A stretch of DNA of 64,000 bases from Flavobacterium sp. UBA5153 (GTDB taxonomy: Bacteria; Bacteroidota; Bacteroidia; Flavobacteriales; Flavobacteriaceae): assembly GCF_002413745.1 (NCBI RefSeq), contig NZ_DHXP01000073.1. The stretch is one strand, 5' to 3'. Positions within the stretch are counted from its first letter, which is position 1, and each line of letters starts with the position of its first letter. Both the position numbers and the translations under genes were made by a program. The notes beneath the pieces are model-generated. The model did no database searches, was not told where the DNA came from, and worked only from the letters and a program-made list of their open reading frames with translations. Positions 12,418 to 62,940 of the stretch are shown piece by piece.

Positions 12418-12484
12418 TGGGATTTTCTTATGGTTTTTGTAGTTGTAAATTTAAACTATTAATTTGTTGTGCTGAATATTTTGT

Positions 12485-13367: not shown

Positions 13368-13380
13368 CTTTTGATTAATT

Positions 13381-38921: not shown

Positions 38922-38935
38922 TGTTTATTTTTTAC

Positions 38936-38973
38936 CGCAAAGGCGCAAAGTTTTTTCGCAAAGCACACAAAGC
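38936..38973. repeat. Four direct C(G/A)CAAAG words
   Basis: CCGCAAAGGCGCAAAGTTTTTTCGCAAAGCACACAAAGC, read directly. Confidence 0.6.
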
Positions 38974-39019
38974 TAATTAGTGTTGTTTTTTAGTTTTAAA
39001 TCTGAATATTGCAACAGAA

Positions 39020-39349
39020 TTATCCTCCTACTCGTTTTACTTTAAATCCTTTTTCTTTAAATATTTGCATAATTTTATCACGATAATCTCCCTGTATAAT
39101 TATGGAATCGTCTTTGAAAGTACCGCCAACGCTCAATTTAGTTTTAATTTCTTTGGCTAGAATTTTAAAATCCTCGTCTGTCCCTTCGTAACCCTCAATT
39201 ATGGTCGTGGCTTTTCCTTTTCGCTTTTCGAATTTGCAAATCATGGGTTCTTTTTGAATAAAAAGCACGTGATTTTCTTCTTGAATTTCTTCAGGTTCCG
39301 ATTCTATATGGTCTGGAAATAAATTTTTTAATTGCTCTTGTAAGTCCAT
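39020..39349 (-). CDS. SUI1/YciH family translation initiation factor
   Basis: KGKATTIIEGYEG...KLSVGGTFKDD...IQGDYRDKI is a typical SUI1 fold sequence. Confidence 0.85.
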   Translation of the reverse strand: MDLQEQLKNLFPDHIESEPEEIQEENHVLFIQKEPMICKFEKRKGKATTIIEGYEGTDEDFKILAKEIKTKLSVGGTFKDDSIIIQGDYRDKIMQIFKEKGFKVKRVGG

Positions 39350-39389
39350 TTTTTATCTTTTTGTAGGCGATTGTATTTATCTAAAAATC

Positions 39390-39426
39390 AAAAAAGACAT
39401 CAAGCAAAAACTCAATGTCTTTTTTA
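39390..39426 (-). terminator. Intrinsic terminator after the oxygenase gene
   Basis: AAAAAAGACAT...ATGTCTTTTTT hairpin with flanking A and T runs. Confidence 0.7.
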
Positions 39427-39443
39427 CAGTATAAATTTATAAT

Positions 39444-40394
39444 TTATTTTTTGATTAATCCCAAATCTACCAATCTTTCGTACAAGTATTCTCCAGCCGT
39501 AATAGCCTCGAATTTCTTTGGATTTTCGGCATCAATACAATTTTCCAAACAATCCAATCGCATATCACTTATGGGATGCATAAAAAACGGAATAGAAAAA
39601 CGCGAAGTTCCCCATAATTCTTTTGGAGGATTCACCACTTGGTGAATGGTGGATTTTAATTTATTATTGGTGTGACGCGATAACATGTCGCCTACATTTA
39701 TGACTAATTCGTCAGGTTGGGCAATGGCGTCAATCCAAACTCCATCGTGATTTTGAACTTGCAAACCTCGACCTTGGGCGCCCATCAAAAGCGTAATCAA
39801 GTTAATATCGCCGTGAGCTGCGGCTCGAATGGCATTTTCGGGTTCCGAAGTAATGGGTGGATAATGAATTGGTCTTAAAATCGAGTTTCCTTCTTTGGCA
39901 TATTCATCAAAATAAAACTCGTCTAATCCAAGGTATAAAGCCAAAGCTCTCAATACATAAACTCCTGTTTTTTCGAGCATTTGGTAGGCTTCTTTTCCCA
40001 CAATATTAAAACGAGGCAATTCTTTAACTTCTACATTATCGGGATATTCTGCTGCGTGTTTTGAGTCTTTTTCAACATATTGTCCAAAGTGCCAAAACTC
40101 TTTCAAATCACCTTCTTTTCTACCTTTAGCGTGTTCTTTTCCACAAGAAACGTAACCTCTTTGTCCTCCAATTTCCGGGATTTCATAACTGTGTTTTGTT
40201 TCTAAGGGAAGGGAGAAAAAATTCCTTATTTCGCCGTACAATTCATCAACCAATTGGTCGTCTAAAAAATGACCTTTCAAGGCTACGAATCCAATTTCTT
40301 CAAAGGTGCTTCCTATTTCATTTACAAATTTTTGTTTACGTTTCGGGTCATCCGAAAGGAAATCACGCAAGTCAACACTAGGTATTTTTAGCAT
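39444..40394 (-). CDS. 2OG-Fe(II) oxygenase (isopenicillin N synthase family)
   Basis: HGDINLITLL (HxD), HQV (distal His), RFSIPFF (RxS). Confidence 0.8.
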   Translation of the reverse strand: MLKIPSVDLRDFLSDDPKRKQKFVNEIGSTFEEIGFVALKGHFLDDQLVDELYGEIRNFFSLPLETKHSYEIPEIGGQRGYVSCGKEHAKGRKEGDLKEFWHFGQYVEKDSKHAAEYPDNVEVKELPRFNIVGKEAYQMLEKTGVYVLRALALYLGLDEFYFDEYAKEGNSILRPIHYPPITSEPENAIRAAAHGDINLITLLMGAQGRGLQVQNHDGVWIDAIAQPDELVINVGDMLSRHTNNKLKSTIHQVVNPPKELWGTSRFSIPFFMHPISDMRLDCLENCIDAENPKKFEAITAGEYLYERLVDLGLIKK

Positions 40395-40536
40395 ACTATT
40401 AACTATTTTTTAATATCTTAGAAGTCCTTAAACCTCGTGTCAACAAATGTAAAGAATTATTCTAATTCATAATTTTAAAAGTTACAAACAAAGCGAAATT
40501 AATATAACAAAATCAAGTGAAACTGTTATTTTTTTA

Positions 40537-40544
40537 TACTTTTG
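40537..40544 (+). promoter_or_regulatory. Candidate -7 box TACTTTTG (TAnnTTTG)
   Basis: 25 bp upstream of ATG 40570. Confidence 0.3.
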
Positions 40545-40569
40545 AACCACAATAAATAAAGCAAAACTA

Positions 40570-42546
40570 ATGAATTTCGACAGAAAAAATCTTACCGACA
40601 ATCAATTATTGGATTTATATAAAAGATTGGTAAAACCAAGGTTAATTGAAGAAAAAATGTTGATCCTTATCCGACAAGGAAAAGTGTCCAAATGGTTTTC
40701 CGGAATTGGTCAGGAAGCCATTTCTGTGGGAGTTACGGCGGTTTTGGACGCTGACGAATATATTTTGCCAATGCACCGAAACCTCGGTGTTTTCACCGGA
40801 CGAAACATTCCGTTATACCGACTTTTTTCGCAATGGCAAGGCAAAGCCAATGGGTTCACCAAGGGTCGCGATAGAAGTTTTCACTTTGGAACCCAACAAT
40901 ACAAGATTATCGGGATGATTTCGCATTTGGGTCCACAATTGGGTGTTGCTGACGGGATTGCATTGGCAAACAAATTGAAGAAAAACGGAAAAATTACCGC
41001 CGTTTTCACTGGCGAAGGAGCTACCAGCGAAGGTGATTTTCACGAAGCCTTGAATATTGCCGCCGTTTGGGAATTGCCAGTACTATTCATTATTGAAAAT
41101 AACGGTTATGGACTTTCAACACCCACAAACGAACAATTCCGTTGTGAAAACATTGCTGATAAAGGAATCGGTTACGGAATGGAAAGCCATATAATTGATG
41201 GAAATAACATTCTTGAAGTTTATAATAAATTATCAGAATTGAAAGTTTCGATGACTGCGAATCCGCGTCCCGTTTTATTGGAATTCAAGACATTTCGAAT
41301 GCGCGGACATGAAGAAGCAAGTGGAACTAAATATATACCTCAGGAGTTAATGGATTTATGGGCCATCAAAGATCCCGTAGATAATTACAGAAAATACTTA
41401 TTCGAAAATAAAATACTAACTGCCGGTTTTGATGAAACTTTACGTTCTGAAATCAAGGCAGAAATTGATGAAAGTCTGGCGCTTGCCAATACAGAACCAG
41501 AAATTGAAGCCGTTTTAAGTGAAGAATTAAATGATGTTTACAAACCATATCAATTTGAGGAAGTTAATCCTTCTGACGAAGTAGAAAATATTCGTTTCAT
41601 AGATGCAATTTCCAGTAGTTTGAGACAATCTATGGAACGCCATAAAAACTTGGTAATTATGGGCCAGGATATTGCCGAATATGGTGGTGCTTTCAAAATT
41701 ACGGATGGTTTTGTGGCGCAATTTGGTAAAGAGCGTGTTCGTAATACGCCAATTTGCGAAAGTGCCGTGGTTTCGGCAGGAATGGGATTGTCAATCAACG
41801 GTTATAAAGCGATAGTAGAAATGCAGTTTGCTGATTTTGTTTCGACTGGATTCAACCCGATCGTGAATTTATTGGCAAAATCACATTATCGTTGGCAGGA
41901 AAAGGCAGATGTTGTTGTGCGGATGCCTTGCGGAGGAGGTACACAAGCGGGACCTTTCCATTCGCAAACCAATGAAGCCTGGTTTACCAAAACACCGGGT
42001 TTAAAAGTGGTTTATCCGGCCTTTCCTTATGATGCCAAAGGGCTTTTGGCAACTTCAATCAATGACCCAAATCCGGTGCTGTTTTTTGAGCACAAACAAC
42101 TGTACAGAAGTGTTCACCAAGATGTGCCAAAAGACTATTATACCATTCCGTTAGGAAAAGCGGCTTTATTGAAAGAAGGAAAGGATGTTACTATTATTTC
42201 GTTTGGAGCTGCAGTGCATTGGGCTTTTGATACATTAGCTAAAAATCCTGAAATTTCAGCTGATTTATTGGATTTAAGAACGCTCCAACCTTTGGATACG
42301 GAGGCTATTTACGCTTCTGTAAAGAAAACGGGAAGAGTAATTATATATCATGAGGATTCGATGTTTGGTGGAATTGCCAGTGATATTTCGGCTTTGATTA
42401 TGGAAGAATGTTTTGAATATTTAGATGCGCCAGTAAAAAGAGTAGCAAGTTTAGACACGCCAATTCCGTTTACAAAAGCATTGGAAGATCAGTATTTACC
42501 AAAAGGAAGGTTTGAAATTGTTTTGAGGGAATTACTAATATATTAG
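40570..42546 (+). CDS. Fused alpha/beta E1 component of a 2-oxoacid dehydrogenase (TPP-dependent)
   Basis: 658 aa. The N-half resembles E1 alpha (GEGATSEGDFHE). The C-half resembles E1 beta (transketolase-like pyrimidine-binding and C-terminal domains). Confidence 0.85.
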   Translation: MNFDRKNLTDNQLLDLYKRLVKPRLIEEKMLILIRQGKVSKWFSGIGQEAISVGVTAVLDADEYILPMHRNLGVFTGRNIPLYRLFSQWQGKANGFTKGRDRSFHFGTQQYKIIGMISHLGPQLGVADGIALANKLKKNGKITAVFTGEGATSEGDFHEALNIAAVWELPVLFIIENNGYGLSTPTNEQFRCENIADKGIGYGMESHIIDGNNILEVYNKLSELKVSMTANPRPVLLEFKTFRMRGHEEASGTKYIPQELMDLWAIKDPVDNYRKYLFENKILTAGFDETLRSEIKAEIDESLALANTEPEIEAVLSEELNDVYKPYQFEEVNPSDEVENIRFIDAISSSLRQSMERHKNLVIMGQDIAEYGGAFKITDGFVAQFGKERVRNTPICESAVVSAGMGLSINGYKAIVEMQFADFVSTGFNPIVNLLAKSHYRWQEKADVVVRMPCGGGTQAGPFHSQTNEAWFTKTPGLKVVYPAFPYDAKGLLATSINDPNPVLFFEHKQLYRSVHQDVPKDYYTIPLGKAALLKEGKDVTIISFGAAVHWAFDTLAKNPEISADLLDLRTLQPLDTEAIYASVKKTGRVIIYHEDSMFGGIASDISALIMEECFEYLDAPVKRVASLDTPIPFTKALEDQYLPKGRFEIVLRELLIY

Positions 42547-42635: not shown

Positions 42636-44180
42636 TTATCGATTACTCAACTTGGCTTTTTCCTTAATAATATCACCGATTTTTCTATTTTCAATTTTAC
42701 TTTCGAGCCATGAGATAATATCAAGATATAGAAAAGCTCTTTTTTCGTAAGTGTTTTTTTCCAGTTCTATAAATCGTTCCTTAATTTTTATGAATTCCTT
42801 TTTGATATCTGTAGGATAAATAGTGCTCAATTTTTTCAAAAAACGAATCATTTCCTTTTGCACTTCATGTAAATCATTCATTTTTATCAGAAATTTATAT
42901 GTACTTTTTAGCTGATTTTCCATGTTGAAATCTTTACCCGATTCATAATGGGCAATCAAACACAAAATACGTGCAAAACACGCTAAATCTTCCCGAACAT
43001 AGAGATTTTTGTTGTTAATGATTTTTTCGAGATAAAATATCGATTCAGTATATTTTTCGTTTCCAAAATAAATACAGGCGATTTTATAGTAAAATAACAT
43101 TTCGTGATGCTCATCGAGATGTTCGCTGTGCAACTTTATTTTGTCTAAAATTTCAGGAATCAGATATTCACTTTCAGCAAAAGTACCTTCCAGAATATGA
43201 TAATTCAATTTGTTGTTATACAAATACAAGAACGATAATGAAGCAATATTGTCATTCACCGGAAATTGGGGATCATTTATTGTTTCTTCCAATAATTCCA
43301 AGTATTTTTTGAAATTTGATTTATATTTTAGCATAAATAGAGACTCCAATAAATAATGGTTTCCTTTCAGGAAAAACACGGGATTTAGAAAAATCATATT
43401 TCTATTGTCATAGAAAAGAGTCACCCATTTGTGAGCATATTTATAGCAGGACAGGAAGTCTTGGACTAAAAAACTACGCCAAAGATAGGCATTGTAATAC
43501 CAGTATTTCTCTCGAAACCCAAACTTGCTTTCATCAAATCTAGAAATGTGTTTCTTGAAATAGTCATCGATGTATTTATATTCTTCATCACTTTTTACAT
43601 AGCCGGTCTTAAGCATAATGCCGTATAATTGCAATGATAAATTTGATAATTTGCTTGAAATGGTATTTTTATAGTTCAATTCTTTGGCCTGGACAACCAA
43701 TTCATCGGCGCGTCCTTGAATACTGCGGGTAATGTATTGTGATTCTATCAGTTTTTCGAATTCAACAATTTCATAAGCCATATATTTCTCGTCATTTTCA
43801 AGAGCCTGTTGTTTGGTTTTGTCCAAAATTTTTAAACTTTGTTTATACAAACCTTTATTGTATAGTATTGTGGCAAAATCAATCTGTTCGCGTAACTGGT
43901 AGCGAATGTTTTGGCTGGGAATATTCAAACGAATACTCACCAAAATTTGTTTGTATAAATACGATTTAAGGTTGGATAATTGTACTTTCTTGATGATGCC
44001 GCTTTTCAAAATAATTTTCTCATCATAGACTTCTGATTTGTCTAAAATGTTGAATAATTCGATAAACTTTGTGTTAGAACTCGTTTCGAGCCGACTTGCA
44101 AAAATCTTGAATTGTCTTTTTTCAGACTTCGAAAGCGATTTTATCAATACAAATAAAGAATCTTTTTGATGGTTAGCCAT
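42636..44180 (-). CDS. Hypothetical all-alpha (TPR-like) protein
   Basis: 514-aa ORF. No catalytic motif recognised. Confidence 0.5.
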   Translation of the reverse strand: MANHQKDSLFVLIKSLSKSEKRQFKIFASRLETSSNTKFIELFNILDKSEVYDEKIILKSGIIKKVQLSNLKSYLYKQILVSIRLNIPSQNIRYQLREQIDFATILYNKGLYKQSLKILDKTKQQALENDEKYMAYEIVEFEKLIESQYITRSIQGRADELVVQAKELNYKNTISSKLSNLSLQLYGIMLKTGYVKSDEEYKYIDDYFKKHISRFDESKFGFREKYWYYNAYLWRSFLVQDFLSCYKYAHKWVTLFYDNRNMIFLNPVFFLKGNHYLLESLFMLKYKSNFKKYLELLEETINDPQFPVNDNIASLSFLYLYNNKLNYHILEGTFAESEYLIPEILDKIKLHSEHLDEHHEMLFYYKIACIYFGNEKYTESIFYLEKIINNKNLYVREDLACFARILCLIAHYESGKDFNMENQLKSTYKFLIKMNDLHEVQKEMIRFLKKLSTIYPTDIKKEFIKIKERFIELEKNTYEKRAFLYLDIISWLESKIENRKIGDIIKEKAKLSNR

Positions 44181-52614: not shown

Positions 52615-52645
52615 GCGAGGTAGAAAATCTACTTCGCATTTTTTC
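52615..52645 (+). terminator. Intrinsic terminator about 165 nt downstream of ilvC
   Basis: GCGAGGTAG-AAAAT-CTACTTCGC (9-bp stem with 1 G-U pair) followed by ATTTTTTC. Confidence 0.65.
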
Positions 52646-52703: not shown

Positions 52704-52711
52704 TATTTTTG
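52704..52711 (+). promoter_or_regulatory. Candidate -7 box TATTTTTG for the PKS cluster
   Basis: Matches TAnnTTTG, 43 bp upstream of ATG 52754. Confidence 0.3.
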
Positions 52712-52753: not shown

Positions 52754-53887
52754 ATGAAGACAAATGCTGATGTTATTATTATTGGGGGAGGTTTGGCAGG
52801 GCTTACAAGTGCCATTCATTTATCGAAATTAGGGTTGCAAGTAACCTTGATAGAAAAAAATGAATTCCCAAAACACAAAGTTTGTGGCGAATACATTTCA
52901 AATGAAGTTTTGCCATATCTAAAATGGCTAGACTTAAATATAGCTGAATTACATCCTTCAAACATTACAAAACTACAATTTTCAACTGGCAACGGAAAAA
53001 CAATTTATAGTAATTTACCGCTTGGCGGATTTGGCATTAGCCGATATGCTTTAGATGAATTTTTGTATAAAAAAGCAATAGCCAATGGTTGTAAAATCAT
53101 TCAGGAAACTATTGAAACTATTGTTTTTAAAGACAATCTATTTACTGTAACGACTTCAGATAATACCATTTTAAAAGCCGAAATTGTTATTGGCGCATTC
53201 GGAAAACGTTCTAATATTGATCAAAAACTTAATCGTGATTTCATTCAAAAAAAAGCCCCTTGGTTAGCTGTTAAAGCCCATTATTCAGGAGATTTTCCTG
53301 ATAATTTGGTTGGTTTGCATAATTTTAAAGGTGGTTATTGCGGTGTTTCAAAAGTAGAAAATGACAGAATCAATATTTGTTATCTAGCTGATTATGAAAC
53401 TTTCAAACGATACAAGAATATTGAGGATTATCAAAAGCAAGTGGTTTCCCAAAATCCACATTTAAAAGCAATTTTCGAAAATTACACCTTGCTTTTTGAA
53501 AAACCATTAACAATAAGTCAAATTTCTTTCGAGAAAAAAGAAGCAGTCGAAAACCACATTTTGATGATTGGAGATACTGCCGGATTGATTCATCCTTTGT
53601 GTGGCAACGGAATGGCAATAGCTATTCATAGTGCGAAAATTGTATCTGAATTAATCTACAACTATTATAATAATGAAATAAAATCCAGAACTGAATTAGA
53701 AAAAAAATACATTCGGGAAAGGAATGCTAATTTCAAAAAAAGACTAAGAACCGGAAGGTTTTTATCCAATCTTTTACAAAAGCAAAAACTATCAGTAGTA
53801 TTGATGTATATATTAGTTCTATTTCCATTTCTATTGCCAAAAATCATCAAAAAAACTCATGGAAAACCTATAATTTTAAAACTATAA
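52754..53887 (+). CDS. FAD-dependent oxidoreductase (geranylgeranyl reductase / flavin monooxygenase-like)
   Basis: DVIIIGGGLAGL dinucleotide-binding motif. MIGDTAGLIHPLCGNGM. Confidence 0.8.
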   Translation: MKTNADVIIIGGGLAGLTSAIHLSKLGLQVTLIEKNEFPKHKVCGEYISNEVLPYLKWLDLNIAELHPSNITKLQFSTGNGKTIYSNLPLGGFGISRYALDEFLYKKAIANGCKIIQETIETIVFKDNLFTVTTSDNTILKAEIVIGAFGKRSNIDQKLNRDFIQKKAPWLAVKAHYSGDFPDNLVGLHNFKGGYCGVSKVENDRINICYLADYETFKRYKNIEDYQKQVVSQNPHLKAIFENYTLLFEKPLTISQISFEKKEAVENHILMIGDTAGLIHPLCGNGMAIAIHSAKIVSELIYNYYNNEIKSRTELEKKYIRERNANFKKRLRTGRFLSNLLQKQKLSVVLMYILVLFPFLLPKIIKKTHGKPIILKL

Positions 53888-54601
53888 ATGTCTCTAAATA
53901 CTAAATCCAGAACCGACAAACCTGAAAGTATGGATGATTTTGCCATGGAAGGTGAAATCTTGCGTGATACGTTAGATAAAATTGCCAAAATCAATCAATT
54001 TTTAGGCGGAAATAAACTGACTTTACAAGGAGTTCAGTCTTTAATTGCCTACATTCCTCAATCTACAGAAATTACTATTGTAGACATAGGTTGTGGCAAT
54101 GGAGATATGTTAAGATTATTGGCAGATTATGGATTGAAAAACGATTTAAAATTTCAATTAATAGGAATTGATGCAAATAATTTTACCATCAACCACGCAC
54201 GAAAATTGTCGACAAATTACCCAAATATAAGTTACCAATGGGAAGATGTTTTTAATAAATCTTTTAGTGAGTTAAGATATGATATAGTATTGTGTACGTT
54301 AACATTACATCATTTTAAAGACAAAGAAATAATTCAATTAATAACTGTTTTTAACACGAATTCGAGAATAGGAATTGTAATAAATGATTTACAAAGAAAT
54401 GCAATAGCATACCGTTTATTTCAAGCCTTATGTTTTGTATTTCAATTGAATAAAATGGCTCGAGAAGATGGGTTAACATCCATTTTAAGAGGTTTTAAAA
54501 AAGAAGAATTGGTTCATTTTTCAGAAAAATTAAATTTCAAAAACTATAAAATCCAATGGAAATGGGCTTTCCGTTATCAATGGATAATTTCAAAACTATG
54601 A
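53888..54601 (+). CDS. Class I SAM-dependent methyltransferase
   Basis: Motif I VDIGCGNGD. Starts immediately after the upstream stop. Confidence 0.8.
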   Translation: MSLNTKSRTDKPESMDDFAMEGEILRDTLDKIAKINQFLGGNKLTLQGVQSLIAYIPQSTEITIVDIGCGNGDMLRLLADYGLKNDLKFQLIGIDANNFTINHARKLSTNYPNISYQWEDVFNKSFSELRYDIVLCTLTLHHFKDKEIIQLITVFNTNSRIGIVINDLQRNAIAYRLFQALCFVFQLNKMAREDGLTSILRGFKKEELVHFSEKLNFKNYKIQWKWAFRYQWIISKL

Positions 54602-55650
54602 GTGTAAAAATTAAAACCGTAACCAAACAGTTACCAAAATATTCCAGGGCAACAAATGAAATTATTCCATTTCTTGACGCTTGGTTAGTCGGACAAGACC
54701 AACGTTTTATCAAAAAAGTTAAGAAAATTTTCGAAGGTGCTGCCGTTGACAAAAGATATTCTATCATGGATCCCATCGAAGTTTTTACCAAAACATCTTT
54801 TGAAGAAAGAAATGATATTTATATTCGGGAGGTGGTTGATTTAGGAGAAAAAGTACTGGAAAAAGCGTTGCTAAAAGCGCAATGGAATCCTGAAGATTTA
54901 GATTACATCATCACGGTAAGTTGTACCGGAATTATGATTCCTTCATTGGATGCGTATTTGATCAATAAATTAAAATTACGTCAGGATATCGTGCGCCTTC
55001 CAGTAACTGAGATGGGCTGTGCGGCAGGTATATCAGGAATTATATATGCTAAAAACTTTCTTCAGGCCAATCCTGGAAAACGAGCTGCCGTAATTTCTGT
55101 CGAAAGCCCAACGGCAACGTTTCAACTAGATGATTTTTCGATGGCAAATATTGTCAGTGCTGCGATTTTTGGCGACGGAGCAGCTTGTGTTTTGCTTTCT
55201 TCTCATGAAGATGATGAAGGCCCAGAAATTCTAGCTGAAGAAATGTATCATTTTTATGATAATATTGATATGATGGGTTTCAAACTCACGAATTCAGGCT
55301 TACAAATGATTTTAGATATTGAAATTCCAGAAACTATTGCATCTCATTTTCCTGATATTATTCATCCGTTTTTGGCAAAAAATAACTTAAAAATTGATGA
55401 TATTGATCATTTGATTTTTCACCCCGGTGGAAAAAAAATTGTACAAACTGTCGAAAATTTGTTTTCTGATTTAGGAAAAAATATAGACGACACAAAAGAA
55501 GTTTTACGTTTGTATGGAAACATGTCGAGCGCTACTGTTTTGTATGTTTTAGAACGATTTATGGAGAATAGGCCTGAAAAAGGAACTAAAGGATTAATGT
55601 TGAGTTTTGGGCCCGGATTTTCGGCACAAAGAATTTTATTGCAATTTTAA
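54598..55650 (+). CDS. Type III polyketide synthase (chalcone/stilbene synthase superfamily)
   Basis: Cys-His-Asn triad contexts: TEMGCAAG, FHPGGKKI, YGNMSSATV. The start at 54598 has an ATGA overlap with the methyltransferase stop. Confidence 0.85.
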   Translation: MSVKIKTVTKQLPKYSRATNEIIPFLDAWLVGQDQRFIKKVKKIFEGAAVDKRYSIMDPIEVFTKTSFEERNDIYIREVVDLGEKVLEKALLKAQWNPEDLDYIITVSCTGIMIPSLDAYLINKLKLRQDIVRLPVTEMGCAAGISGIIYAKNFLQANPGKRAAVISVESPTATFQLDDFSMANIVSAAIFGDGAACVLLSSHEDDEGPEILAEEMYHFYDNIDMMGFKLTNSGLQMILDIEIPETIASHFPDIIHPFLAKNNLKIDDIDHLIFHPGGKKIVQTVENLFSDLGKNIDDTKEVLRLYGNMSSATVLYVLERFMENRPEKGTKGLMLSFGPGFSAQRILLQF

Positions 55651-55762
55651 ATTAGAACTAGAACACAAAACTATCTATTTAGAGTTCTGTTTAAACTTTT
55701 GTAAAAGATTGAACAATGTTTTAGAAAATAATTATAGAAAATATTTTGCCTTTGCATACAAA

Positions 55763-56197
55763 ATGAATAAAGAACAAATTATATCAAAATTGCCGTATTC
55801 AAAACCATTTTTGTTTGTAGATGAATTGCTGCAAATCAATGAAAATGGGGTAGAAGGAACCTATACTTTTAATGAAAACCTAGATTTTTATAAAGGACAT
55901 TTTAAGGATTTACCGGTTACACCAGGTGTTATTTTGACTGAAGTCATGGCACAAATTGGATTGGTTTGTTTGGGAATTTATTTATTGGATGATAAATTCG
56001 ATAAAAGTATTACAATTGCTTTAACTTCAACAGAAATTGAGTTTTTAAAACCTGTTTTTCCAAATGAAAAAGTAATCGTTATTTCAGAAAAAATATACTT
56101 TAGATTTGGTAAATTAAAATGCAAAGTCATTATGAAAAATGAAAATGGAGAAGAAGTTTGTATGGGAACAATTGCAGGAATGATAACTTCTATATAA
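55763..56197 (+). CDS. FabZ/FabA-like 3-hydroxyacyl-ACP dehydratase
   Basis: YKGHFKDLPVTPGVILTEVMAQ hot-dog active-site motif. ATG at 55763. Confidence 0.75.
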   Translation: MNKEQIISKLPYSKPFLFVDELLQINENGVEGTYTFNENLDFYKGHFKDLPVTPGVILTEVMAQIGLVCLGIYLLDDKFDKSITIALTSTEIEFLKPVFPNEKVIVISEKIYFRFGKLKCKVIMKNENGEEVCMGTIAGMITSI

Positions 56198-57469
56198 ATG
56201 ATTAAACGAGTAGTAATAACGGGTCTTGGTGTTGTTGCTCCAAATGGAGTGGGGCTTGATGCGTTTACAAACGCCATTAAAAACGGAATTTCAGGAATTA
56301 AACATGATCCTGAATTAGAAAGATTGCATTTCTCCTGCCAAATTGCAGGTAAGCCAAATATTTCAACTGAATTATCACTAAATTATTTCACTGAATTAGA
56401 ATTGAGAAACTTCAATTCATCAGGAATTTTATATGGTGTGATTGCAGGAATTGATGCTTGGAAAGACGCAGGATTGTCAATGGAAATTAATGAAGAACCA
56501 GATTGGGACAGTGGAACTATTTTTGGAACCGGAACTTCTGGAATAGATAAATTCAGGGAAAGTATTTATAAAATTGACGATTTACAAACCAGACGATTAG
56601 GAAGCACAGCCGTGGCACAAACCATGAATAGTGGTGTGAGTGCTTATTTAGGCGGAAAATTAGGATTGGGAAATCAAGTCACAACAAATTCTTCTGCATG
56701 TGTCACAGGCACCGAAAGTATTTTGATGGGATTTGAACGGATAAAATTAGGGCTTGCAAAACGCATTTTGGCAGGAAGCACAAGCGATTCCGGTCCTTAT
56801 ATTTGGGGCGGATTTGATGCAATGAAAGTATGCACTTTTAAGCATAACAAAACGCCAGAACAAGGCTCAAGACCAATGAGCGTAAGTGCTTCCGGATTTG
56901 CACCAGGAAGTGGAGCAGGAGCTTTAGTTTTGGAAGATTTAGAAACTGCTTTGGCTCGTGGTGCAAAAATTTATGCTGAAGTTCTTGGTGGAAACTTGAA
57001 TTCCGGTGGTCAACGGGGACAAGGAACAATGACGGCTCCAAATCCTGTAGCCGTACAAAAATGTATTAAAGATACATTAGAAAATGCCGGAATTCATCCA
57101 AATGAAATTGATGCCATCAACGGACATTTGACCGCCACATCAAAAGACAGTTTGGAAATTCGGAATTGGAGCGAAGCTTTGAATAGAAAAGGGATTGATT
57201 TCCCGTACATCAACTCATTGAAATCAATGGTTGGACATTGTTTGTCTGGCGCGGGAAGCATTGAAAGCGTGGCTTCTGTTTTGCAATTGCATCACGGATT
57301 TATTTTTCCTAATATCAATTGTGAAGATTTGCATCCCGAAATCACTGCTATTATTGATGCGACCCGGATTCCACAACAATTAATTGAAAAAGAATTGAAT
57401 ATTGTCGCAAAAGCCAGTTTTGGTTTTGGAGACGTGAATGGATGCGTAATTTTTAAGAAATACAAATAA
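56198..57469 (+). CDS. Beta-ketoacyl-ACP synthase (FabF/FabB-like KS)
   Basis: Cys-His-His contexts: NSSACVTG, INGHLTAT, SMVGHCLSGAG. Confidence 0.85.
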   Translation: MIKRVVITGLGVVAPNGVGLDAFTNAIKNGISGIKHDPELERLHFSCQIAGKPNISTELSLNYFTELELRNFNSSGILYGVIAGIDAWKDAGLSMEINEEPDWDSGTIFGTGTSGIDKFRESIYKIDDLQTRRLGSTAVAQTMNSGVSAYLGGKLGLGNQVTTNSSACVTGTESILMGFERIKLGLAKRILAGSTSDSGPYIWGGFDAMKVCTFKHNKTPEQGSRPMSVSASGFAPGSGAGALVLEDLETALARGAKIYAEVLGGNLNSGGQRGQGTMTAPNPVAVQKCIKDTLENAGIHPNEIDAINGHLTATSKDSLEIRNWSEALNRKGIDFPYINSLKSMVGHCLSGAGSIESVASVLQLHHGFIFPNINCEDLHPEITAIIDATRIPQQLIEKELNIVAKASFGFGDVNGCVIFKKYK

Positions 57470-57472
57470 AAT

Positions 57473-57727
57473 ATGAACAAACCGGAAATTATCGAAAAGT
57501 TAAAAATTATAGTTAAACCCTATATTAAAAACCAGGAAGCCTTCGACAATCTTACTGAAAGTACTGATTTCATCACTGATTTACAAATTAATTCGGCAAA
57601 TTTGGTCGACGTGATTTTAGATATTGAGGAAGAATATAATATTGTAATCGACAATCAATCGATGGAAAGAATGCTCGACGTGAAATCGGCGATGGAGATT
57701 ATTGAAACCAAATTATCCGAAAAGTGA
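57473..57727 (+). CDS. Acyl carrier protein
   Basis: 84 aa, acidic. DLQINSANLVDVILDIEEEY carries the phosphopantetheine Ser. Confidence 0.8.
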   Translation: MNKPEIIEKLKIIVKPYIKNQEAFDNLTESTDFITDLQINSANLVDVILDIEEEYNIVIDNQSMERMLDVKSAMEIIETKLSEK

Positions 57728-58221
57728 TAGGAAACGACATTGTAGATTTGGCTTTAGCCCGAAAAGAAAGCAATTGGAAAAGGAATGGTTTTTTGGATAA
57801 AGTTTTTACCAAAAAAGAACAATTGTTAATTTTAAATTCAGGAAATCCAGAAATTATGGTCTGGAATTTATGGAGTAGAAAGGAAGCGGCTTATAAAATT
57901 TACAATCGGAAAACCCAAATTCGTGGATATTTTCCTTTGCAACTGGAATGTTTTGAAATAGAAATTATTGACGATATTTCTTTCGGAAAGGTTGCCATAA
58001 AAGACCATATATATTTCACAAAAACAGAAATTACATCTCAATTTATCAATACGATTGCAGTTGAAAACAGAAAAGATTTTGACAAAATTAAAACGTTGGA
58101 AAATTCTGAAAATATTCAAAGAGATAAAGGAATACCAAGCTGTCTTGAAAAAGATAATTTAGTTCCAAAACCTGTATCCATAAGCCACCACGGAAGATTT
58201 AAACAAATTATTTCTCTTTAG
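57724..58221 (+). CDS. 4'-phosphopantetheinyl transferase (AcpS-like)
   Basis: GTG start overlapping the ACP stop. IGNDIVDL N-terminus and WSRKEAAYK motif. Confidence 0.7.
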   Translation: MIGNDIVDLALARKESNWKRNGFLDKVFTKKEQLLILNSGNPEIMVWNLWSRKEAAYKIYNRKTQIRGYFPLQLECFEIEIIDDISFGKVAIKDHIYFTKTEITSQFINTIAVENRKDFDKIKTLENSENIQRDKGIPSCLEKDNLVPKPVSISHHGRFKQIISL

Positions 58222-58814
58222 TTCAGTCCTAATCTTGACTTTAATTTCAGGAAAAGCAACGCTATTTTATAGGCGTCTTCGGACGAAGAATTTCTGTCAC
58301 TTTTTGGAATTTTGTAAATACCGCATAATTCGTCAAGCGAAAATTGTTTATTGCTAATATCATGTAGTTTACGGTGCATTACATCAATATCCAGCGCTTC
58401 ATTTTTTAATCTTCCGCAACCTAATCTTTCCAAGGCTGCATTTATCATTTCCACATCAAAATCAACGTGATGTCCAACCAATACAGCATTTCCAATAAAC
58501 TCGATAAGAGCCTGTATTGCGTCGGGTTCTCCGAGTTTTTTCATTTTGCTTTCAACAACAAACTCATTTGTAAGACCGTTGTCGTGGAAAAATTTATATT
58601 GTAACAAAACAGTCTCAAAACTATCTCCTATAAGGATGCTATTATTAACTACGGCAAAGGAACCAATTGACACAATTACATCCTTGCTTGGATTTAAACC
58701 CGAGGTTTCAGTGCTTAAAACAACAAAACGCTTTGATTTTTTATCGAATTTAGAAACGTATTCCTTCCAAAATTCGGGATATTCCTTGTTGATATTTTTT
58801 ATCCAGTCTAACAT
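58218..58814 (-). CDS. DnaQ/DEDD-like exonuclease-fold protein with substituted catalytic positions
   Basis: ExoI reads VLSTETSG (Ser where Asp is expected). ExoII reads GHHVDFD. ExoIII reads RNSSSEDAY (Asn where His is expected, by eye). Confidence 0.75.
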   Translation of the reverse strand: MLDWIKNINKEYPEFWKEYVSKFDKKSKRFVVLSTETSGLNPSKDVIVSIGSFAVVNNSILIGDSFETVLLQYKFFHDNGLTNEFVVESKMKKLGEPDAIQALIEFIGNAVLVGHHVDFDVEMINAALERLGCGRLKNEALDIDVMHRKLHDISNKQFSLDELCGIYKIPKSDRNSSSEDAYKIALLFLKLKSRLGLN

Positions 58815-58816
58815 AG

Positions 58817-60733
58817 TTATGAAAATTGGGTAAGTTGAAACTTGGTTTTTATTAATTCTTCCAATTCTTTCATGGGAGCCAAAGCACTTTTCAAATTTTC
58901 CTTGTCAACTTTTGATAGCTCCTGTAAATCAATATATTGTCCGGAATTATCATTATTTAAGCCTTCCAATGTCCTGAATTTTGACAAAGTCAAAAAAGCT
59001 TCGGCACAATTAAGATAAATTTCACTGTTTTTAGGATCTGTAATTGCTAACTGTTTAAAACGCATATACGTATTATTTACATTTCGAATGTTATGACTCA
59101 AAGCAAATAAACGAGCCCCATCGATAAGCGGCATCAAAGCACGAGTTTTTATGTCAAACTTACCTTTGTTAGTACCTTCGTCTTCGACGATAAATTTCTT
59201 AAAAAAGCTTAGTGGCGAGTTTTTTCGTAATGCATCATTTCCTAAAAAATCAAAGAATAAGGCATTATTATGAACATTGGTATAAATTATGTTTTCAATT
59301 GCTTCTTCAATTCTTTTCTCTCCAAAGACGATTTCATAATCAAAGAAAATACTGCTTATATCATTACTGTTTTCTCCTGGAGTATTGATCCAAGTATTGT
59401 ATTGTTTTGTCCAGTCAGTCAATGATTTACACCATAACATATTGCTTCCCATGTGGCCGTTTGGACATAATTCATAACCCACTTTTTCTAAAATCGCCGT
59501 GGTTCTTTTTCCTAATTTCAGGAAATAATCCTTCACATCTCTGTATTTATCGGCAGTTACATCTTCAAAAATCAAAATACTGTCTTGATCCGTGAGCAAT
59601 AATTGTTCTTTTCTTCCTTGGCTACCAATGCTAAACCAAGCAAAACTGGCAGGAGGGGAGCCTAAATCTAAAATTGACAACTCGATTGATCTCTTAATAA
59701 TGGCCAAATTAATTTCACTGGCAATATTGTTAATGTGAGAAAGTGGAATATTTTTATGAATTGATTTTTGGATGAGATCAGTTAGACGTTCCCTTATCAA
59801 TTTTAAGTCCTTTGGGCTTTTAGAACGTTTAATTTCTTTTATCAAAACACCTGGATTATTGGCTTGGGCTACTATTAAATCGTGTTCGGAAATAATTCCT
59901 TTAACGGCTGATTTATCGGTTCCGTCTTGAGTAACACATAGATGAGTCACGTTGTGTTTGAGCATCAGTAACTGGGCTTCCGCCAAAGAAACATTCTCGA
60001 CAACAGTCACTACCGGTGATGACATAATTTTATCTACAGTACTTGTGATATTAAATCGGCCAGTAGCAATTTTTGTGCACATATCAGTATTCGTAACAAT
60101 TCCGATAGGGTTGTTGTTTTCACAAATTAAAACACTATTGGAAATCGAATTTGTCATAAGTTGTGCAACTTCCTGTATTATATTTGTTTTTGTTGCTCTT
60201 AAAGGAGATAAATTATAAGACAATGATTGAAAATACTGCATTTCAGAATGCTGGTCAGAATAGTAGACATTGTCAGAAATCAGTTTTCCGTGCAAATTTT
60301 CACTTTCACTTGGATTGCTCGTGTTTGAGGCAAAACTCTGCAATAAGTAATCTAATACTTCTGGGTTGTTGGCTACAAATGGACGAAAAGTGGCAATGGG
60401 AATGGCATAAATAATGCTTTCTTCACGAGCTTTGGCGGTCATCAAATAATTATTCTTGGCAAAAAACGGACGCAAACCAAAAACATCACCCTCAACACAT
60501 TTGTTTAATATCGTGTCTTCTGCATCCGCAATGACCGATAAATTAATAACACCAGAAGCCACGACATAAAAACAATCGTGCAAATCATCATTGATTTGAA
60601 ACAAAGTTTTGTGTTTTTCCAAGTTAAGAACACGAATACTTATGGCAATTTCTGACAACTCTTGAAAAGTTAAATTATCAAATGGCGGATATTCCTTTAA
60701 AAAATCAGCAATATGTTCTGCAATTGTGTTCAT
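58817..60733 (-). CDS. Cyclic-nucleotide-binding + CBS pair + DUF294 nucleotidyltransferase protein
   Basis: The cNMP-binding N-terminus has GDVFGLRPFF. A CBS pair follows. GSQGRKEQLLLTDQDS is a nucleotidyltransferase motif. 638 aa. Confidence 0.8.
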   Translation of the reverse strand: MNTIAEHIADFLKEYPPFDNLTFQELSEIAISIRVLNLEKHKTLFQINDDLHDCFYVVASGVINLSVIADAEDTILNKCVEGDVFGLRPFFAKNNYLMTAKAREESIIYAIPIATFRPFVANNPEVLDYLLQSFASNTSNPSESENLHGKLISDNVYYSDQHSEMQYFQSLSYNLSPLRATKTNIIQEVAQLMTNSISNSVLICENNNPIGIVTNTDMCTKIATGRFNITSTVDKIMSSPVVTVVENVSLAEAQLLMLKHNVTHLCVTQDGTDKSAVKGIISEHDLIVAQANNPGVLIKEIKRSKSPKDLKLIRERLTDLIQKSIHKNIPLSHINNIASEINLAIIKRSIELSILDLGSPPASFAWFSIGSQGRKEQLLLTDQDSILIFEDVTADKYRDVKDYFLKLGKRTTAILEKVGYELCPNGHMGSNMLWCKSLTDWTKQYNTWINTPGENSNDISSIFFDYEIVFGEKRIEEAIENIIYTNVHNNALFFDFLGNDALRKNSPLSFFKKFIVEDEGTNKGKFDIKTRALMPLIDGARLFALSHNIRNVNNTYMRFKQLAITDPKNSEIYLNCAEAFLTLSKFRTLEGLNNDNSGQYIDLQELSKVDKENLKSALAPMKELEELIKTKFQLTQFS

Positions 60734-61668: not shown

Positions 61669-62940
61669 CTATATATCCCCTTTTGTTTTTTTTTCGGGTC
61701 TGATAATCATTCTTAAAGATTGGTCTTTCGAGAAATAGGCAATCATCCAATGATATAAAGTATTGATTCGGTTGCGATAGGTTATCAGGGACATTAGGTG
61801 CACAAACAACCAAATCATCCAGGCAAAAATGCCTTTGAAGTGAATTTTTGGTTTGGGCAAATCAACAACGGCTTTATTCTTTCCTATAATTGCCATAGAG
61901 CCTTTGTCTTTGTATTTAAATGTATTTAACGGCTTATTTTCAAGCATTAGTTTGAAGTTTTTCGCTAAATTAACTCCTTGTTGAATGGCGACTTGGGCGA
62001 CTTGGGGATGTCCTCCCGGAAAATCTGCATCGTTGAGTTGGATACAGGTGTCACCAATGGCATAGACGTTTTCGGTAGCGTTTACTTTATTAAAGGCATC
62101 CGTAGCCATTCGTTTACCACGACCATAACTTTCTGTTGGGATCCCTTCAAATTCTTTAGCCGAAACTCCTGCCGCCCATATTAAATTCTTGGTTTGAATG
62201 GTTTCACCATTAGCAAAAAAAACAGTATCATCTTTATAATCAATTACTTTTGTGTTTAGCTTTACAACAACCCCAAGATTGGTTACGGCTTCGAGAGTGT
62301 CTTTTTGAGATTCTTTACTCATGGGAGATAACAAGGCATCGCCTCCATCAACCAAATAAATATTACTGGCTGATGTATCTAATTCAGGATATTCTTTGAG
62401 CAATATGGTTTTTCGCATTTCGGCAAACATTCCCGAAACTTCCACTCCAGTTGGACCTCCTCCAACAACTACAATGGTCAATAGCACTCTTCGTTTGTGG
62501 ATGTCTTTGCAAATGGCCGCTTTTTCAAGATTTTTCAATAATGTATTGCGCATTTCAATGGCATCATTGAGTGTTTTCATAGGAATTGCATTTTTTTTGA
62601 TATTTTCCATTCCGAAATAACTTGTTTCAGCTCCTGTGGCAAAAACCAAATAGTCATAATTCAATTCGCCATTATTGAGAATAATTTTGTTTTCTGCAGG
62701 AATTACTTTTTGCAATTCGCCCAAACGAAACTGTAAATTCTTTTTGCCTGAAAAAAACTTTCGAAAAGGATAACTGATACTGGAGGGCTCCAAAAATGCT
62801 GTCGCTACTTGATAGATGAGTGGCGGAAAGAAATTATAGTTGTTTTTGTCAACAAGTATTACTTCAATACCTTTATGGTTTGTCAGTTCTTTGACTAAAT
62901 TGATTCCGGCAAAACCTCCTCCTATTATTACAATTTGCAT
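61669..62940 (-). CDS. ndh: Type II NADH dehydrogenase (NDH-2) family flavoprotein
   Basis: MQIVIIGGGFAG and VVGGGPTGVE dinucleotide-binding motifs. C-terminal membrane-anchoring helix. Confidence 0.85.
   Translation of the reverse strand: MQIVIIGGGFAGINLVKELTNHKGIEVILVDKNNYNFFPPLIYQVATAFLEPSSISYPFRKFFSGKKNLQFRLGELQKVIPAENKIILNNGELNYDYLVFATGAETSYFGMENIKKNAIPMKTLNDAIEMRNTLLKNLEKAAICKDIHKRRVLLTIVVVGGGPTGVEVSGMFAEMRKTILLKEYPELDTSASNIYLVDGGDALLSPMSKESQKDTLEAVTNLGVVVKLNTKVIDYKDDTVFFANGETIQTKNLIWAAGVSAKEFEGIPTESYGRGKRMATDAFNKVNATENVYAIGDTCIQLNDADFPGGHPQVAQVAIQQGVNLAKNFKLMLENKPLNTFKYKDKGSMAIIGKNKAVVDLPKPKIHFKGIFAWMIWLFVHLMSLITYRNRINTLYHWMIAYFSKDQSLRMIIRPEKKTKGDI

Follow-up and report, generated by a model that had tools for sequence, protein, structure and literature searches.

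Seven genes on a Flavobacterium contig form a real operon, whose conservation extends over Flavobacterium and related marine genera. This operon probably directs formation of a membrane phenolic lipid, in which an acyl chain would be built on the operon's own acyl carrier protein (ACP) and passed to a type III polyketide synthase (PKS), the product then being methylated and oxidized. The pathway is best read as similar to those of the srs, hid, and pkq clusters, with a starter that would be made or elongated on the dedicated ACP by a discrete, small type II fatty acid synthase (FAS). The original prediction knew of no characterized product for the cluster, and in the searched literature we likewise found no paper assigning or characterizing one and no metabolite data.

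A conserved operon of seven genes

The window, a stretch of 64,000 nucleotides, contains seven tightly packed, co-directional genes (52754..58221, plus strand), in each of which the stated domain was confirmed. The features of the locus are as follows.

52615..52637, plus strand: terminator-like hairpin (10-bp stem, T-run) after ilvC; upstream boundary of the operon
52704..52711, plus strand: candidate Bacteroidetes-type -7 promoter motif TATTTTTG (TAnnTTTG), a pattern match only, 43 nt before the first ATG
52754..53887, plus strand: FAD-dependent oxidoreductase, 377 aa (FAD_binding_3, GGGLAGL)
53888..54601, plus strand: class I (Rossmann) SAM-dependent methyltransferase (MT), 237 aa (Methyltransf_25/31, VDIGCGNGD)
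54598..55650, plus strand: type III PKS, 350 aa (Chal_sti_synt_N and _C above Pfam cut-offs)
55651..55762, plus strand: 112-nt noncoding spacer, the site of a FabL-like enoyl-ACP reductase (ER) gene in relatives
55763..56197, plus strand: FabZ-like 3-hydroxyacyl-ACP dehydratase (DH), 144 aa (FabA/FabZ hot-dog domain)
56198..57469, plus strand: FabF/FabB-like elongating beta-ketoacyl-ACP synthase (KS), 423 aa (both ketoacyl-synt domains)
57473..57727, plus strand: dedicated ACP, 84 aa (NCBIfam E 5e-9)
57724..58221, plus strand: AcpS-like 4'-phosphopantetheinyl transferase (PPTase), 165 aa, GTG start (ACPS family, Pfam 43.9 bits with a cut-off of 25)

The promoter label rests on TAnnTTTG, which we take to be the Bacteroidetes consensus. 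The outer coordinates of the original prediction were right, as was its description of seven co-directional genes, and every gene call and motif that it listed was confirmed by domain searches and ortholog conservation; two internal starts were shifted. The PKS start was moved to ATG 54598, which overlaps the MT stop by 4 nt, because conservation in orthologs does not extend to the 14 N-terminal residues of the longest open reading frame (beginning at 54556), and the 350-aa protein is also that of the NCBI annotation. The DH start was moved to the conserved ATG 55763 because the 52 N-terminal residues added by the longest frame (beginning at TTG 55607) are not conserved. With these starts, the spacing is 0 nt for FAD-MT, -4 for MT-PKS, +112 for PKS-DH, 0 for DH-KS, +3 for KS-ACP, and -4 for ACP-PPTase.

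Synteny of the seven genes is kept in 76 of 80 loci of Flavobacterium species, the exceptions being three loci cut by contig ends and one (L078) with no detectable PPTase. Catalytic residues are present in the window proteins and conserved in 77–84 orthologs. Pairwise dN/dS was 0.03–0.22 across all seven genes, with constraint on the PKS and KS equal to that on ilvC and weakest, among the seven, on the PPTase gene. Zobellia and Flagellimonas keep the order FAD-MT-PKS-ER-DH-KS-ACP, and a metagenome-assembled genome (MAG) of Flavobacteriales has MT-MT-PKS-ER-DH-KS-ACP-PPT, with a FAD homolog 7 kb upstream. Proteins of these three relatives are 62–71% (PKS) and 55–68% (KS) identical to those of the window. 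The cluster is a family-wide, vertically inherited trait and not a strain-specific biosynthetic gene cluster.

The operon might instead serve two unrelated functions, with FAD-MT-PKS using ordinary acyl-CoA or AcpP-bound starters for a phenolic lipid and DH-KS-ACP-PPTase producing another lipid, such as a special fatty acid. We consider such a division improbable. The 112-nt gap between the PKS and DH genes is consistent with it, as is the finding that PKS, MT, and FAD clusters of other phyla work without a KS/ACP module (PMC10896814). However, the PKS adjoins (ER)-DH-KS-ACP in the same direction in every Flavobacteriaceae locus examined, despite the divergence of both synthases, and spacing is almost nil in relatives. 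A search of the spacer for a terminator-like site found none, and domain search of the cluster revealed no acyltransferase or thioesterase, and so nothing other than the PKS, to off-load the ACP.

Type III PKS and its relatives

The PKS contains the motifs EMGCAAG, FHPGG, and GNMSSAT, with a Cys141/His275/Asn308 triad. Its top sequence match was Pks11 of M. tuberculosis (E 7e-52, 31% identity), which was also the top structural match of the predicted model (pLDDT 96; TM 0.94), followed by CylI, PKS18, and Steely1. All four are long-chain and/or carrier-fed enzymes, and it is to such enzymes that the modeled PKS is structurally nearest. Pks11 is equal in size to the window PKS, shares its triad, and is likewise aromatic at the cyclization position, but it differs in genomic context and, by our reading of the alignment, has Cys at one acyl-tunnel position where the window PKS has Pro171 (Pro185 in 364-aa numbering; residues named in PMC7064976). 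At the cyclization-determining position of ArsB (Trp281), the window PKS has Phe228, in contrast to the Trp of both ArsB and Pks11 (Trp230). Given this Phe, and given that the predictor based on this position failed experimentally for DquA, the product may be either an alkylresorcinol or an alkylpyrone.

Lys280 of the PKS lies at the ACP-contact position, where Lys has been tied to ACP-bound starters in the literature; against its weight as evidence, most bacterial type III PKSs, even those of relatives that lack an ACP gene, have Lys or Arg there. Outside Flavobacteriales, the nearest relatives of the PKS are at most 48% identical and belong mostly to plain PKS, MT, and FAD clusters of the srs/pkq/hid type. 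Most of those looked up lie beside MT and FAD genes (one beside an MT gene only, one beside neither), and none of their clusters contains a KS or ACP gene. The proposal that a dedicated ACP supplies a starter to the PKS, with methylation and oxidation to follow, remains the best explanation of the operon: the PKS, DH, KS, and ACP stay linked across Flavobacteriaceae genera, the nearest relatives elsewhere have only MT and FAD partners, and Lys is present at the contact position.

The flow might also be reversed, with the PKS making a DpgA-like aromatic CoA starter that the KS and DH extend on the ACP to an aryl-polyene or flexirubin-like pigment, the ring being decorated by the MT and a halogenase-like flavoprotein. 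This we regard as highly improbable. DpgA was indeed the best NCBIfam match of the PKS (179 bits), the DH of relatives matches an ApeI-like Pfam family, and flavin halogenases are the best PDB profile matches of the FAD family; yet that score falls far short of the model's cut-off of 425, in a collection with few type III PKS models, and the PKS is nearest in sequence and structure to synthases of long-chain alkylpyrones and alkylresorcinols. The FAD protein also lacks the halogenase WxWxIP motif (its GGYCGVS aligns to GWVWMIP of CmlS), and the enoyl reductase of relatives would destroy a polyene. Domain search found no chain-length factor, ketoreductase, second DH, thioesterase, or lipid-export genes. 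The absence of DarA/DarB-type flexirubin genes had been noted in the original prediction, and no DarB-type enzyme was found: the PKS itself was the sole match of the DarB model, at 22 bits where the cut-off is 550. We infer that the FAS-like enzymes act upstream of the PKS, because the cyclized product freed by the PKS is no substrate for a FabF-type KS.

Elongation module and enoyl reductase

The DH has a conserved His (YKGHF) and Glu (PGVILTE), and the KS a conserved Cys-His-His triad (NSSAC, NGHLTAT, MVGHCLS). The KS has diverged from housekeeping FabF, scoring 264 bits where the cut-off of TIGR03150 is 493.75, and no further ketosynthase was found among scanned window open reading frames of at least 150 aa. 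The ACP has its phosphopantetheine Ser within conserved INSANLVD and a full-length match to the Thermus ACP 1x3o. In the PPTase, IGNDIVDL and KEAAYK are conserved and the C-terminal half is poorly conserved. Domain search of the cluster revealed no ketoreductase or malonyl transferase and, in the window, no enoyl reductase; the module therefore cannot work alone.

Zobellia, Flagellimonas, and the Flavobacteriales MAG have an extra short-chain dehydrogenase/reductase (SDR) gene between the PKS and DH genes. Its best NCBIfam match (FabL), best PDB match (3oic), and Y-x6-K motif mark it as a FabL-type enoyl-ACP reductase, and the module is therefore an elongation set of the fatty-acid type. A FabL-like ER gene was found in two of 80 Flavobacterium-type loci; the window has none, and no remnant of one was detectable in the spacer. 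The ancestral module also included a FabL-like ER, whose gene was lost in the lineage of the window.

This distribution favors a reading in which the ER-less Flavobacterium module goes no further than an enoyl (or 3-hydroxy or 3-oxo) intermediate, so that a trans-2-enoyl- or beta-ketoacyl-ACP primes the PKS and the phenolic lipid is alkenyl or shorter-extended. CylI, the second-best structural match of the PKS, takes a beta-ketoacyl thioester, in line with this reading. Any acyl-ACP is, however, normally a substrate for housekeeping enoyl reductases, and we judge this alternative unlikely, together with its variant in which the flavoprotein saturates the side chain instead of hydroxylating the ring.

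Tailoring enzymes and proposed pathway

The FAD protein has a FAD_binding_3 match over residues 5–325, the GGGLAGL dinucleotide fold, an invariant K42-V43-C44-G45-E46, GDTAGLIHPLCGNGM, and a hydrophobic C-terminal tail. The top profile matches of its family were flavin halogenases, FixC, and geranylgeranyl reductase, with no classical ring hydroxylases among them. Cys in a KVCGE-type motif is typical of geranylgeranyl reductases, and the top NCBIfam score was that of a geranylgeranyl reductase subfamily (118 bits, under the 158.8 cut-off), both of which favor a saturase; further matches were QhpG-, LodB-, and UbiH-like, and the ring hydroxylases QhpG and LodB, next-best in NCBIfam, argue against one. 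Given that FAD and ER genes occur together in L016, L078, Zobellia, and Flagellimonas, the FAD gene is also no simple replacement for the ER. We presume that the FAD enzyme is a ring hydroxylase, with a reductase role as the alternative.

Unlike BpsB/DquB, which are of the ICMT type, the MT is a soluble enzyme of class I; it is related to PRK06202 below cut-off (NF004851, 127.9 bits against 243). Its tested partners from clusters of other phyla matched only in the SAM-binding core. Of two PKS-adjacent flavoproteins from other phyla, the FAD protein showed full-length similarity to one (L084, 22% identical) and similarity to the other (L087) in the Rossmann motif only. By sequence comparison, neither protein is a clear ortholog of the partners tested. 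The description of these enzymes as SrsBC-like therefore stands as an analogy of role, not as orthology.

Reportedly, as described by Hayashi et al. in 2011, the ftp operon of Myxococcus xanthus encodes the type III PKS FtpA with a fatty acyl-AMP ligase and an ACP. There, as in our proposal, it is a dedicated ACP that offers the fatty starter to the PKS, and methylation and oxidation of the product lead to an alkylquinone; unlike ftp, the window cluster has no acyl-AMP ligase by domain search, and loading would be by the condensing enzyme instead. FtpA is cited in PMC10896814. The srsABC (Streptomyces griseus), pkqABC (Mycobacterium smegmatis, Streptomyces MNU77), hidABC (Cyanobium), and planctomycetal MT-oxidoreductase-PKS operons, like that of the window, combine a type III PKS, an MT, and a flavin oxidoreductase, but they lack KS, DH, ER, ACP, and PPTase. 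The trio has been shown experimentally to yield alkylresorcinols, hierridins, or polyketide quinones, the alkylresorcinols being methylated and oxidized to methoxy-quinones or hierridins (PMC10896814; PMC9927152).

Direct transfer from a FAS to a type III PKS is known in Azotobacter (reviewed in PMC6274091). In the ars system of Azotobacter vinelandii, as in the pathway proposed here, alkylresorcinols or alkylpyrones are made by a type III PKS that receives its long acyl starter directly from a dedicated FAS activity and carrier (PMC6274091). That system has two multidomain type I synthases (ArsA/ArsD) and two PKSs (ArsB/ArsC), whereas the window has discrete type II-like KS, DH, and ACP (plus ER in relatives) with no ketoreductase or acyltransferase of its own, one PKS, and, in addition, an MT and a flavoprotein. 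Steely1/2 of Dictyostelium and CylH-CylI of cyanobacteria likewise pass an acyl or beta-ketoacyl chain, made by FAS/PKS domains and bound to a carrier, to a type III PKS, which closes a resorcinol-type ring; the type III PKS domains of both figure among the top structural matches noted above (PMC8086630). These enzymes are fused or type I modular, whereas those of the window stand alone and have their own PPTase. By analogy, the window module is best read as a dissociated equivalent of ArsA/D in Azotobacter or Steely in Dictyostelium.

In the pathway that we propose, the PPTase would convert the ACP to its holo form, and the KS would join malonyl groups on it to an acyl primer, presumably from the cellular fatty-acid pool or from decarboxylated malonyl-ACP. 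Malonyl transfer and keto-reduction would be performed by housekeeping FabD and FabG, and dehydration by the DH. For enoyl reduction, relatives would use their FabL-like ER, and the window lineage presumably a housekeeping one. The acyl-ACP (or beta-ketoacyl-ACP), of presumably long chain length, would be handed directly to Cys141 of the PKS, which would add about three malonyl-CoA and cyclize the chain to a 5-alkylresorcinol or alkylpyrone. The ring would then be methylated by the MT and hydroxylated by the membrane-tethered flavoprotein, and the end product would be a methoxy-alkyl-hydroquinone or -benzoquinone or a hierridin-like methoxyphenol.

Operon architecture and functional integrity

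Seven co-directional ORFs lie at 52754-58221 in the window, and Pfam and NCBIfam gave each of them the domain named in the original prediction; every motif that it had quoted is also present in the translations. Gene starts were judged from alignments of orthologues from 77-84 loci. In the longest ORF for the polyketide synthase (PKS), residues 1-14 are unconserved among orthologues, as are residues 1-52 in that for the dehydratase (DH), and we therefore placed these starts at ATG 54598 and ATG 55763, respectively. With the corrected starts, the successive gene spacings are 0, -4, +112, 0, +3 and -4 nt, an operon-like arrangement in which the flavoprotein (FAD), methyltransferase (MT) and PKS genes abut or overlap. 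The three-gene srs, pkq and hid units likewise combine these three functions in a single operon. The operon follows leuB-ilvDBNC.

Features in and around the operon (window coordinates)
52615-52637: terminator-like hairpin with a 10-bp stem, after ilvC
52704: candidate Bacteroidetes-type promoter motif TAnnTTTG, upstream of the operon
52754-58221 (+): FAD, MT, PKS, DH, ketosynthase (KS), acyl carrier protein (ACP) and phosphopantetheinyl transferase (PPTase) genes
58218-60733 (-): two genes converging on the operon, for an RNase T/DnaQ-like exonuclease and a cNMP-binding, CBS and DUF294 nucleotidyltransferase protein
61669-62940 (-): NDH-2 gene, a few kb beyond the convergent pair

The exonuclease gene overlaps the PPTase stop codon, and most Flavobacterium loci keep both convergent genes in synteny with the operon; the NDH-2 gene is similarly placed in several. 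Rfam detected no RNA element within or upstream of the operon, and a repeat search returned nothing but AT-rich chance matches. A sigma-70 promoter scan found fewer sites than in shuffled sequence, this model being uninformative for Bacteroidetes.

Domain assignments (Pfam, NCBIfam), residues conserved in orthologues, and identity of the Zobellia and Flagellimonas proteins to those of the window
FAD: FAD_binding_3/geranylgeranyl-reductase-like flavoprotein; KVCGE and GDxAGxIxPLxGNGM invariant; 51-53%
MT: class I SAM methyltransferase; 41-43%
PKS: type III PKS; catalytic Cys141, His275 and Asn308 (350-aa numbering); 70-71%
DH: FabA/FabZ hot-dog dehydratase; catalytic His in YKGHF and Glu in PGVILTE; 60-63%
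KS: FabF/FabB-like ketosynthase; Cys-His-His in NSSAC, GHLTAT and GHCLS; 64-68%
ACP: acyl carrier protein; Ser in INSANLVD; 43-46%
PPTase: ACPS-family PPTase; IGNDIVDL and KEAAYK

Pairwise dN/dS values between the window and six other Flavobacterium loci were 0.03-0.07 for the PKS and 0.05-0.07 for the KS, compared with 0.02-0.05 for ilvC; those for the DH, MT and FAD genes were 0.08-0.15, and those for the PPTase gene 0.11-0.22. Scores of the KS (264; cut-off, 493.75), DH (60.9; 155.15) and ACP (31.8; 70.45) fell well below the cut-offs of the housekeeping FabF (TIGR03150), FabZ (TIGR01750) and AcpP (TIGR00517) equivalogs, respectively. These three proteins are therefore specialised paralogues rather than housekeeping copies, and, divergent as they are, they retain their catalytic residues. 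The PPTase, an AcpS-type enzyme in which both motifs, and with them the Mg-binding Asp and Glu, are conserved, scored 43.9 against the Pfam ACPS model (cut-off, 25) and under the cut-off of TIGR00556; it had no sequence match in the PDB.

The type III PKS and its putative tailoring enzymes

The NH2- and COOH-terminal Chal_sti_synt domains of the PKS scored 74.8 and 63.1 bits, respectively (cut-offs of 27). An AlphaFold model of the protein (pLDDT of 96.4) showed a thiolase-type fold, with TM scores of 0.94 to Mycobacterium tuberculosis Pks11 and 0.88-0.92 to structures of the CHS family. Pks11 was also the nearest sequence match (E = 7e-52); the catalytic triad aligns to that of Pks11 and is conserved in 84 orthologues. 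Further structural matches were CylI, PKS18, an M. marinum enzyme, THNS and Steely1, and most of the matches are users of long acyl or carrier-bound starters. With Pks11, CylI and PKS18 as its closest solved relatives, the enzyme may accept long fatty acyl starters and may form a tetraketide resorcinol.

Two positions that bear on cyclisation and starter use were inspected. A residue that steers cyclisation is Trp281 in ArsB, Gly284 in ArsC and Leu266 in Pks18 (PMC7064976, PMC6274091). Located by counting 47 residues before the catalytic His, it is Trp230 in Pks11 and Phe228 (in MMGF) in the window PKS, rather than the Trp that has been proposed to impose aldol cyclisation in alkylresorcinol synthases of the ArsB, SrsA and HidC type; Phe or Tyr occupies it across the whole PKS clade. 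Given that the same predictor failed for DquA (PMC9827899), Phe228 is compatible with a resorcinol as well as with a pyrone. At the fifth position past the catalytic His, plant enzymes that use CoA have Ala, and bacterial enzymes that use ACP have Arg or Lys (PMC7064976, PMC9827899). It is Lys280 (HPGGKK) in the window PKS, as in ACP-primed enzymes, a feature of low discriminating power, since Lys or Arg is likewise found in relatives that have no ACP gene. The top-scoring entry in the search of representatives was a predicted protein of 4818 residues (P0121) with 12 separate type III PKS-like stretches, which may reflect either an error of assembly or gene calling or an unusual tandem array.

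The flavoprotein matches FAD_binding_3 over residues 5-325. In NCBIfam, a geranylgeranyl-reductase subfamily ranked first (under its cut-off), followed by the ring hydroxylases QhpG, LodB and UbiH. A family profile searched against the PDB gave flavin halogenases first, mixed with FixC, geranylgeranyl reductase and a monooxygenase. A flavin-dependent halogenase was rejected: the WxWxIP motif is absent, with GGYCGVS aligning to GWVWMIP of CmlS. The full-length match of the window flavoprotein to that of a Planctomycetota PKS cluster (L084; 22% identity, E = 2e-21) includes KVCGE, and its match to that of another cluster outside Flavobacteriales (L087) is confined to the Rossmann motif. The hydrophobic COOH-terminus suggests membrane attachment. 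The MT matches PKS-adjacent enzymes of other phyla in the SAM-binding core only and is a soluble class I enzyme, whereas BpsB and DquB are of the ICMT type (PMC9827899).

Distribution and ancestry of the cluster

A tblastn search with the seven proteins found all seven genes in the same order in 76 of 80 species-level Flavobacterium loci; three of the other four are cut by contig ends, and one (L078) has no detectable PPTase gene. A RefSeq protein of "unclassified Flavobacterium" matches the window PKS at 100% identity, and a scan of genome contigs with the PKS matched close Flavobacterium relatives only (80-93% identity). In an exhaustive search of 50%-identity representatives the family was isolated, with one representative, from a Flavobacteriales MAG, being 63% identical and all others at most 48%.

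Genera beyond Flavobacterium were found through these representatives and their contig contexts, and through a search with a protein that some relatives encode between the PKS and the DH. This protein is an SDR whose best matches are FabL in NCBIfam and Bacillus subtilis FabL (3oic) in the PDB, and which carries the Y-x6-K motif of enoyl reductases; it is therefore an enoyl-ACP reductase (ER), and a ketoreductase was rejected. The MAG cluster reads MT-MT-PKS-SDR-DH-KS-ACP-PPTase, followed by a gene for a small membrane protein, and the order FAD-MT-PKS-ER-DH-KS-ACP is shared by the clusters of Zobellia barbeyronii and Flagellimonas maritima. ER homologues with 45-51% identity came, by source name, from Zobellia, Maribacter, Croceitalea, Sediminicola, Pricia, Flagellimonas/Allomuricauda, Psychroserpens and others. 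Only two of the 80 Flavobacterium-type loci (L016 and L078) possess the ER gene. The window thus carries a derived form of the cluster, from which the ER has been lost and in which the PPTase is kept.

The clusters of Zobellia and Flagellimonas share with the window not only gene order but also upstream genes, for a PNP_UDP_1 protein, a 2OG oxygenase and a fused branched-chain keto-acid dehydrogenase E1. The cluster is therefore a trait of long standing in Flavobacteriaceae, inherited vertically. Recent horizontal acquisition was rejected on the basis of this conserved neighbourhood and of a low, uniform GC content (between ~0.31 and ~0.36, without a break in composition).

Positions of the upstream trio: PNP_UDP_1 (-), 2OG-Fe(II) oxygenase (-) and fused E1 alpha/beta (+)
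Window: 38055-42546
Zobellia locus (L088): 1-4660
Flagellimonas locus (L089): 1-4745

In Zobellia and Flagellimonas the trio lies 1.3-1.4 kb upstream of the PKS cluster and is separated from it by two small genes. The window has a 514-aa ORF without a Pfam match (42636-44180, -) and leuA-like, leuB and ilvDBNC genes inserted there.

Outside Flavobacteriales, PKS relatives were found in a Planctomycetota MAG, an Oligoflexia MAG and three metagenome contigs. Three of these five contexts place the PKS with both a methyltransferase and a FAD_binding_3 protein; in the Oligoflexia context a methyltransferase alone adjoins it, and in one further context neither is adjacent. None of the five contains a KS or ACP gene. 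That the operon might be two unrelated functions lying side by side is a reading to which we give little weight.

A gene for a YceI lipid-binding protein is often found near the non-Flavobacteriales PKS (L084, 11100-12053; L086, 11170-11799; L087, 11202-11969) and also lies beside the clusters of the marine Zobellia (13098-13613, -) and Flagellimonas (12230-12745, -). No YceI gene was detected within ~6 kb downstream of the window cluster, or by tblastn of the whole window. A membrane-like protein of 136-142 aa without a Pfam match is encoded after the ACP or PPTase gene in the Flavobacteriales MAG (L081, 14370-14780) and Flagellimonas (11783-12211); the two copies are 53% identical, and the window has none.

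Proposed starter supply and pathway, and the wider window

The KS, DH and ACP, together with the ER of relatives, form an elongation set of the fatty-acid type, complete except for a ketoreductase and a malonyl transferase, both of which the cell's FabG and FabD could supply according to established FAS II biochemistry. Given that the cluster encodes no thioesterase or acyltransferase, the PKS is the sole evident exit for an ACP-bound chain. A type III PKS frees a cyclised product that a FabF-type KS could not use, and the FAS-like module would therefore act before the PKS. The reverse flow, resembling aryl-polyene synthesis, is most improbable. The aryl-polyene pathway itself was rejected, since an enoyl reductase occurs in relatives and a CLF and a KR are absent. 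The original prediction had also set aside flexirubin, correctly: the DarB model NF053539 hit the PKS only, with a score of 22.3 bits (cut-off, 550), and no second ketosynthase was found among the scanned window ORFs of at least 150 aa. Without DarB, the flexirubin/DAR pathway was rejected.

In the mechanism that we consider most likely, and with some confidence, the PPTase would activate the ACP, on which the KS, the DH and a reductase would build or lengthen an acyl chain. This chain would be handed to the PKS, which would add malonyl-CoA units and cyclise the product to an alkylresorcinol or alkylpyrone, and methylation followed by flavin-dependent oxidation would yield a methoxy-alkyl-hydroquinone or -quinone or a hierridin-like phenol. 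The original reading of the cluster, a phenolic lipid made from an ACP-bound starter, is supported, and the finding is real. The mechanism fits the demonstrated chemistry of the srs, pkq, hid and planctomycetal operons (PMC10896814, PMC9927152) as well as the direct transfer from FAS to PKS shown for Azotobacter (PMC6274091). For the lineage without the ER, to which the window belongs, it is conceivable, though unlikely, that the starter is only partly reduced (enoyl or beta-keto), that the flavoprotein acts as a reductase, or both.

The PKS, methyltransferase and FAD trio is of an already known kind. For a dedicated supply of starters there are three known arrangements: type I synthases (Ars), fused synthases (Steely) and, in Ftp, an acyl-AMP ligase plus an ACP. 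Azotobacter ars encodes the multidomain type I fatty acid synthases ArsA and ArsD beside the PKS, whereas the KS, DH and ACP of the window are separate single-domain proteins; Myxococcus ftp pairs its fatty acyl-AMP ligase with an ACP, whereas the window has the ACP and no AMP-binding domain in any of the seven proteins. The literature searched describes no case of starter supply by discrete type II FAS-like proteins. If the proposed mechanism is true, hand-over from a stand-alone (type II) FAS to a type III PKS would be seen here for the first time and would complete the series of type I, fused and ligase-loaded systems.

Much of the breakdown of algal and plant polysaccharides in oceans, lakes and soils is the work of Flavobacteriaceae, which rank among its chief agents. 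The original prediction knew of no characterised product for the cluster, and none was found in the literature searched; genome surveys merely count "T3PKS" among the commonest biosynthetic loci of the family and give no product (PMC7440613, PMC10734526, PMC12613372). Our results indicate that this locus is one conserved operon, uniting the well-known phenolic-lipid trio with a discrete type II fatty-acid module, and that the genus Flavobacterium has a derived form without the ER. Its chemistry is predictable in outline, yet this uncharacterised cluster is under strong constraint and very widely distributed. Methoxy-alkylquinones or hierridin-like lipids are worth seeking in these very abundant bacteria, where they might act in respiration or in the tolerance of membrane stress or antibiotics.

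Polyketide quinones act as respiratory electron carriers in mycobacterial biofilms and Streptomyces spores. Vertical family-wide inheritance, a conserved chromosomal neighbourhood and a PKS and KS constrained as tightly as housekeeping genes would suit a product that is a core membrane component of Flavobacteriaceae rather than a "secondary" metabolite, such as a polyketide benzoquinone serving as a second respiratory electron carrier beside menaquinone-6, a reading that we regard as rather doubtful. The side chain of such a quinone could come from a private mini fatty-acid synthase instead of the isoprenoid pathway.

Other regions of the window
31773-33450 (-): group II intron, with Rfam D1-D4 models at 33158-33450 (122 and 36 bits) and an intron-encoded reverse transcriptase/maturase ORF at 31773-33068 (RVT_1 and GIIM)
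13-13367: what looks like a mobile or defence island, with a Schlafen AlbA_2/HATPase_c_4 protein, a type I restriction HsdR-like helicase, DUF6161 and DUF2779 proteins, a small and a large serine recombinase on opposite strands, and an IS200-like transposase fragment
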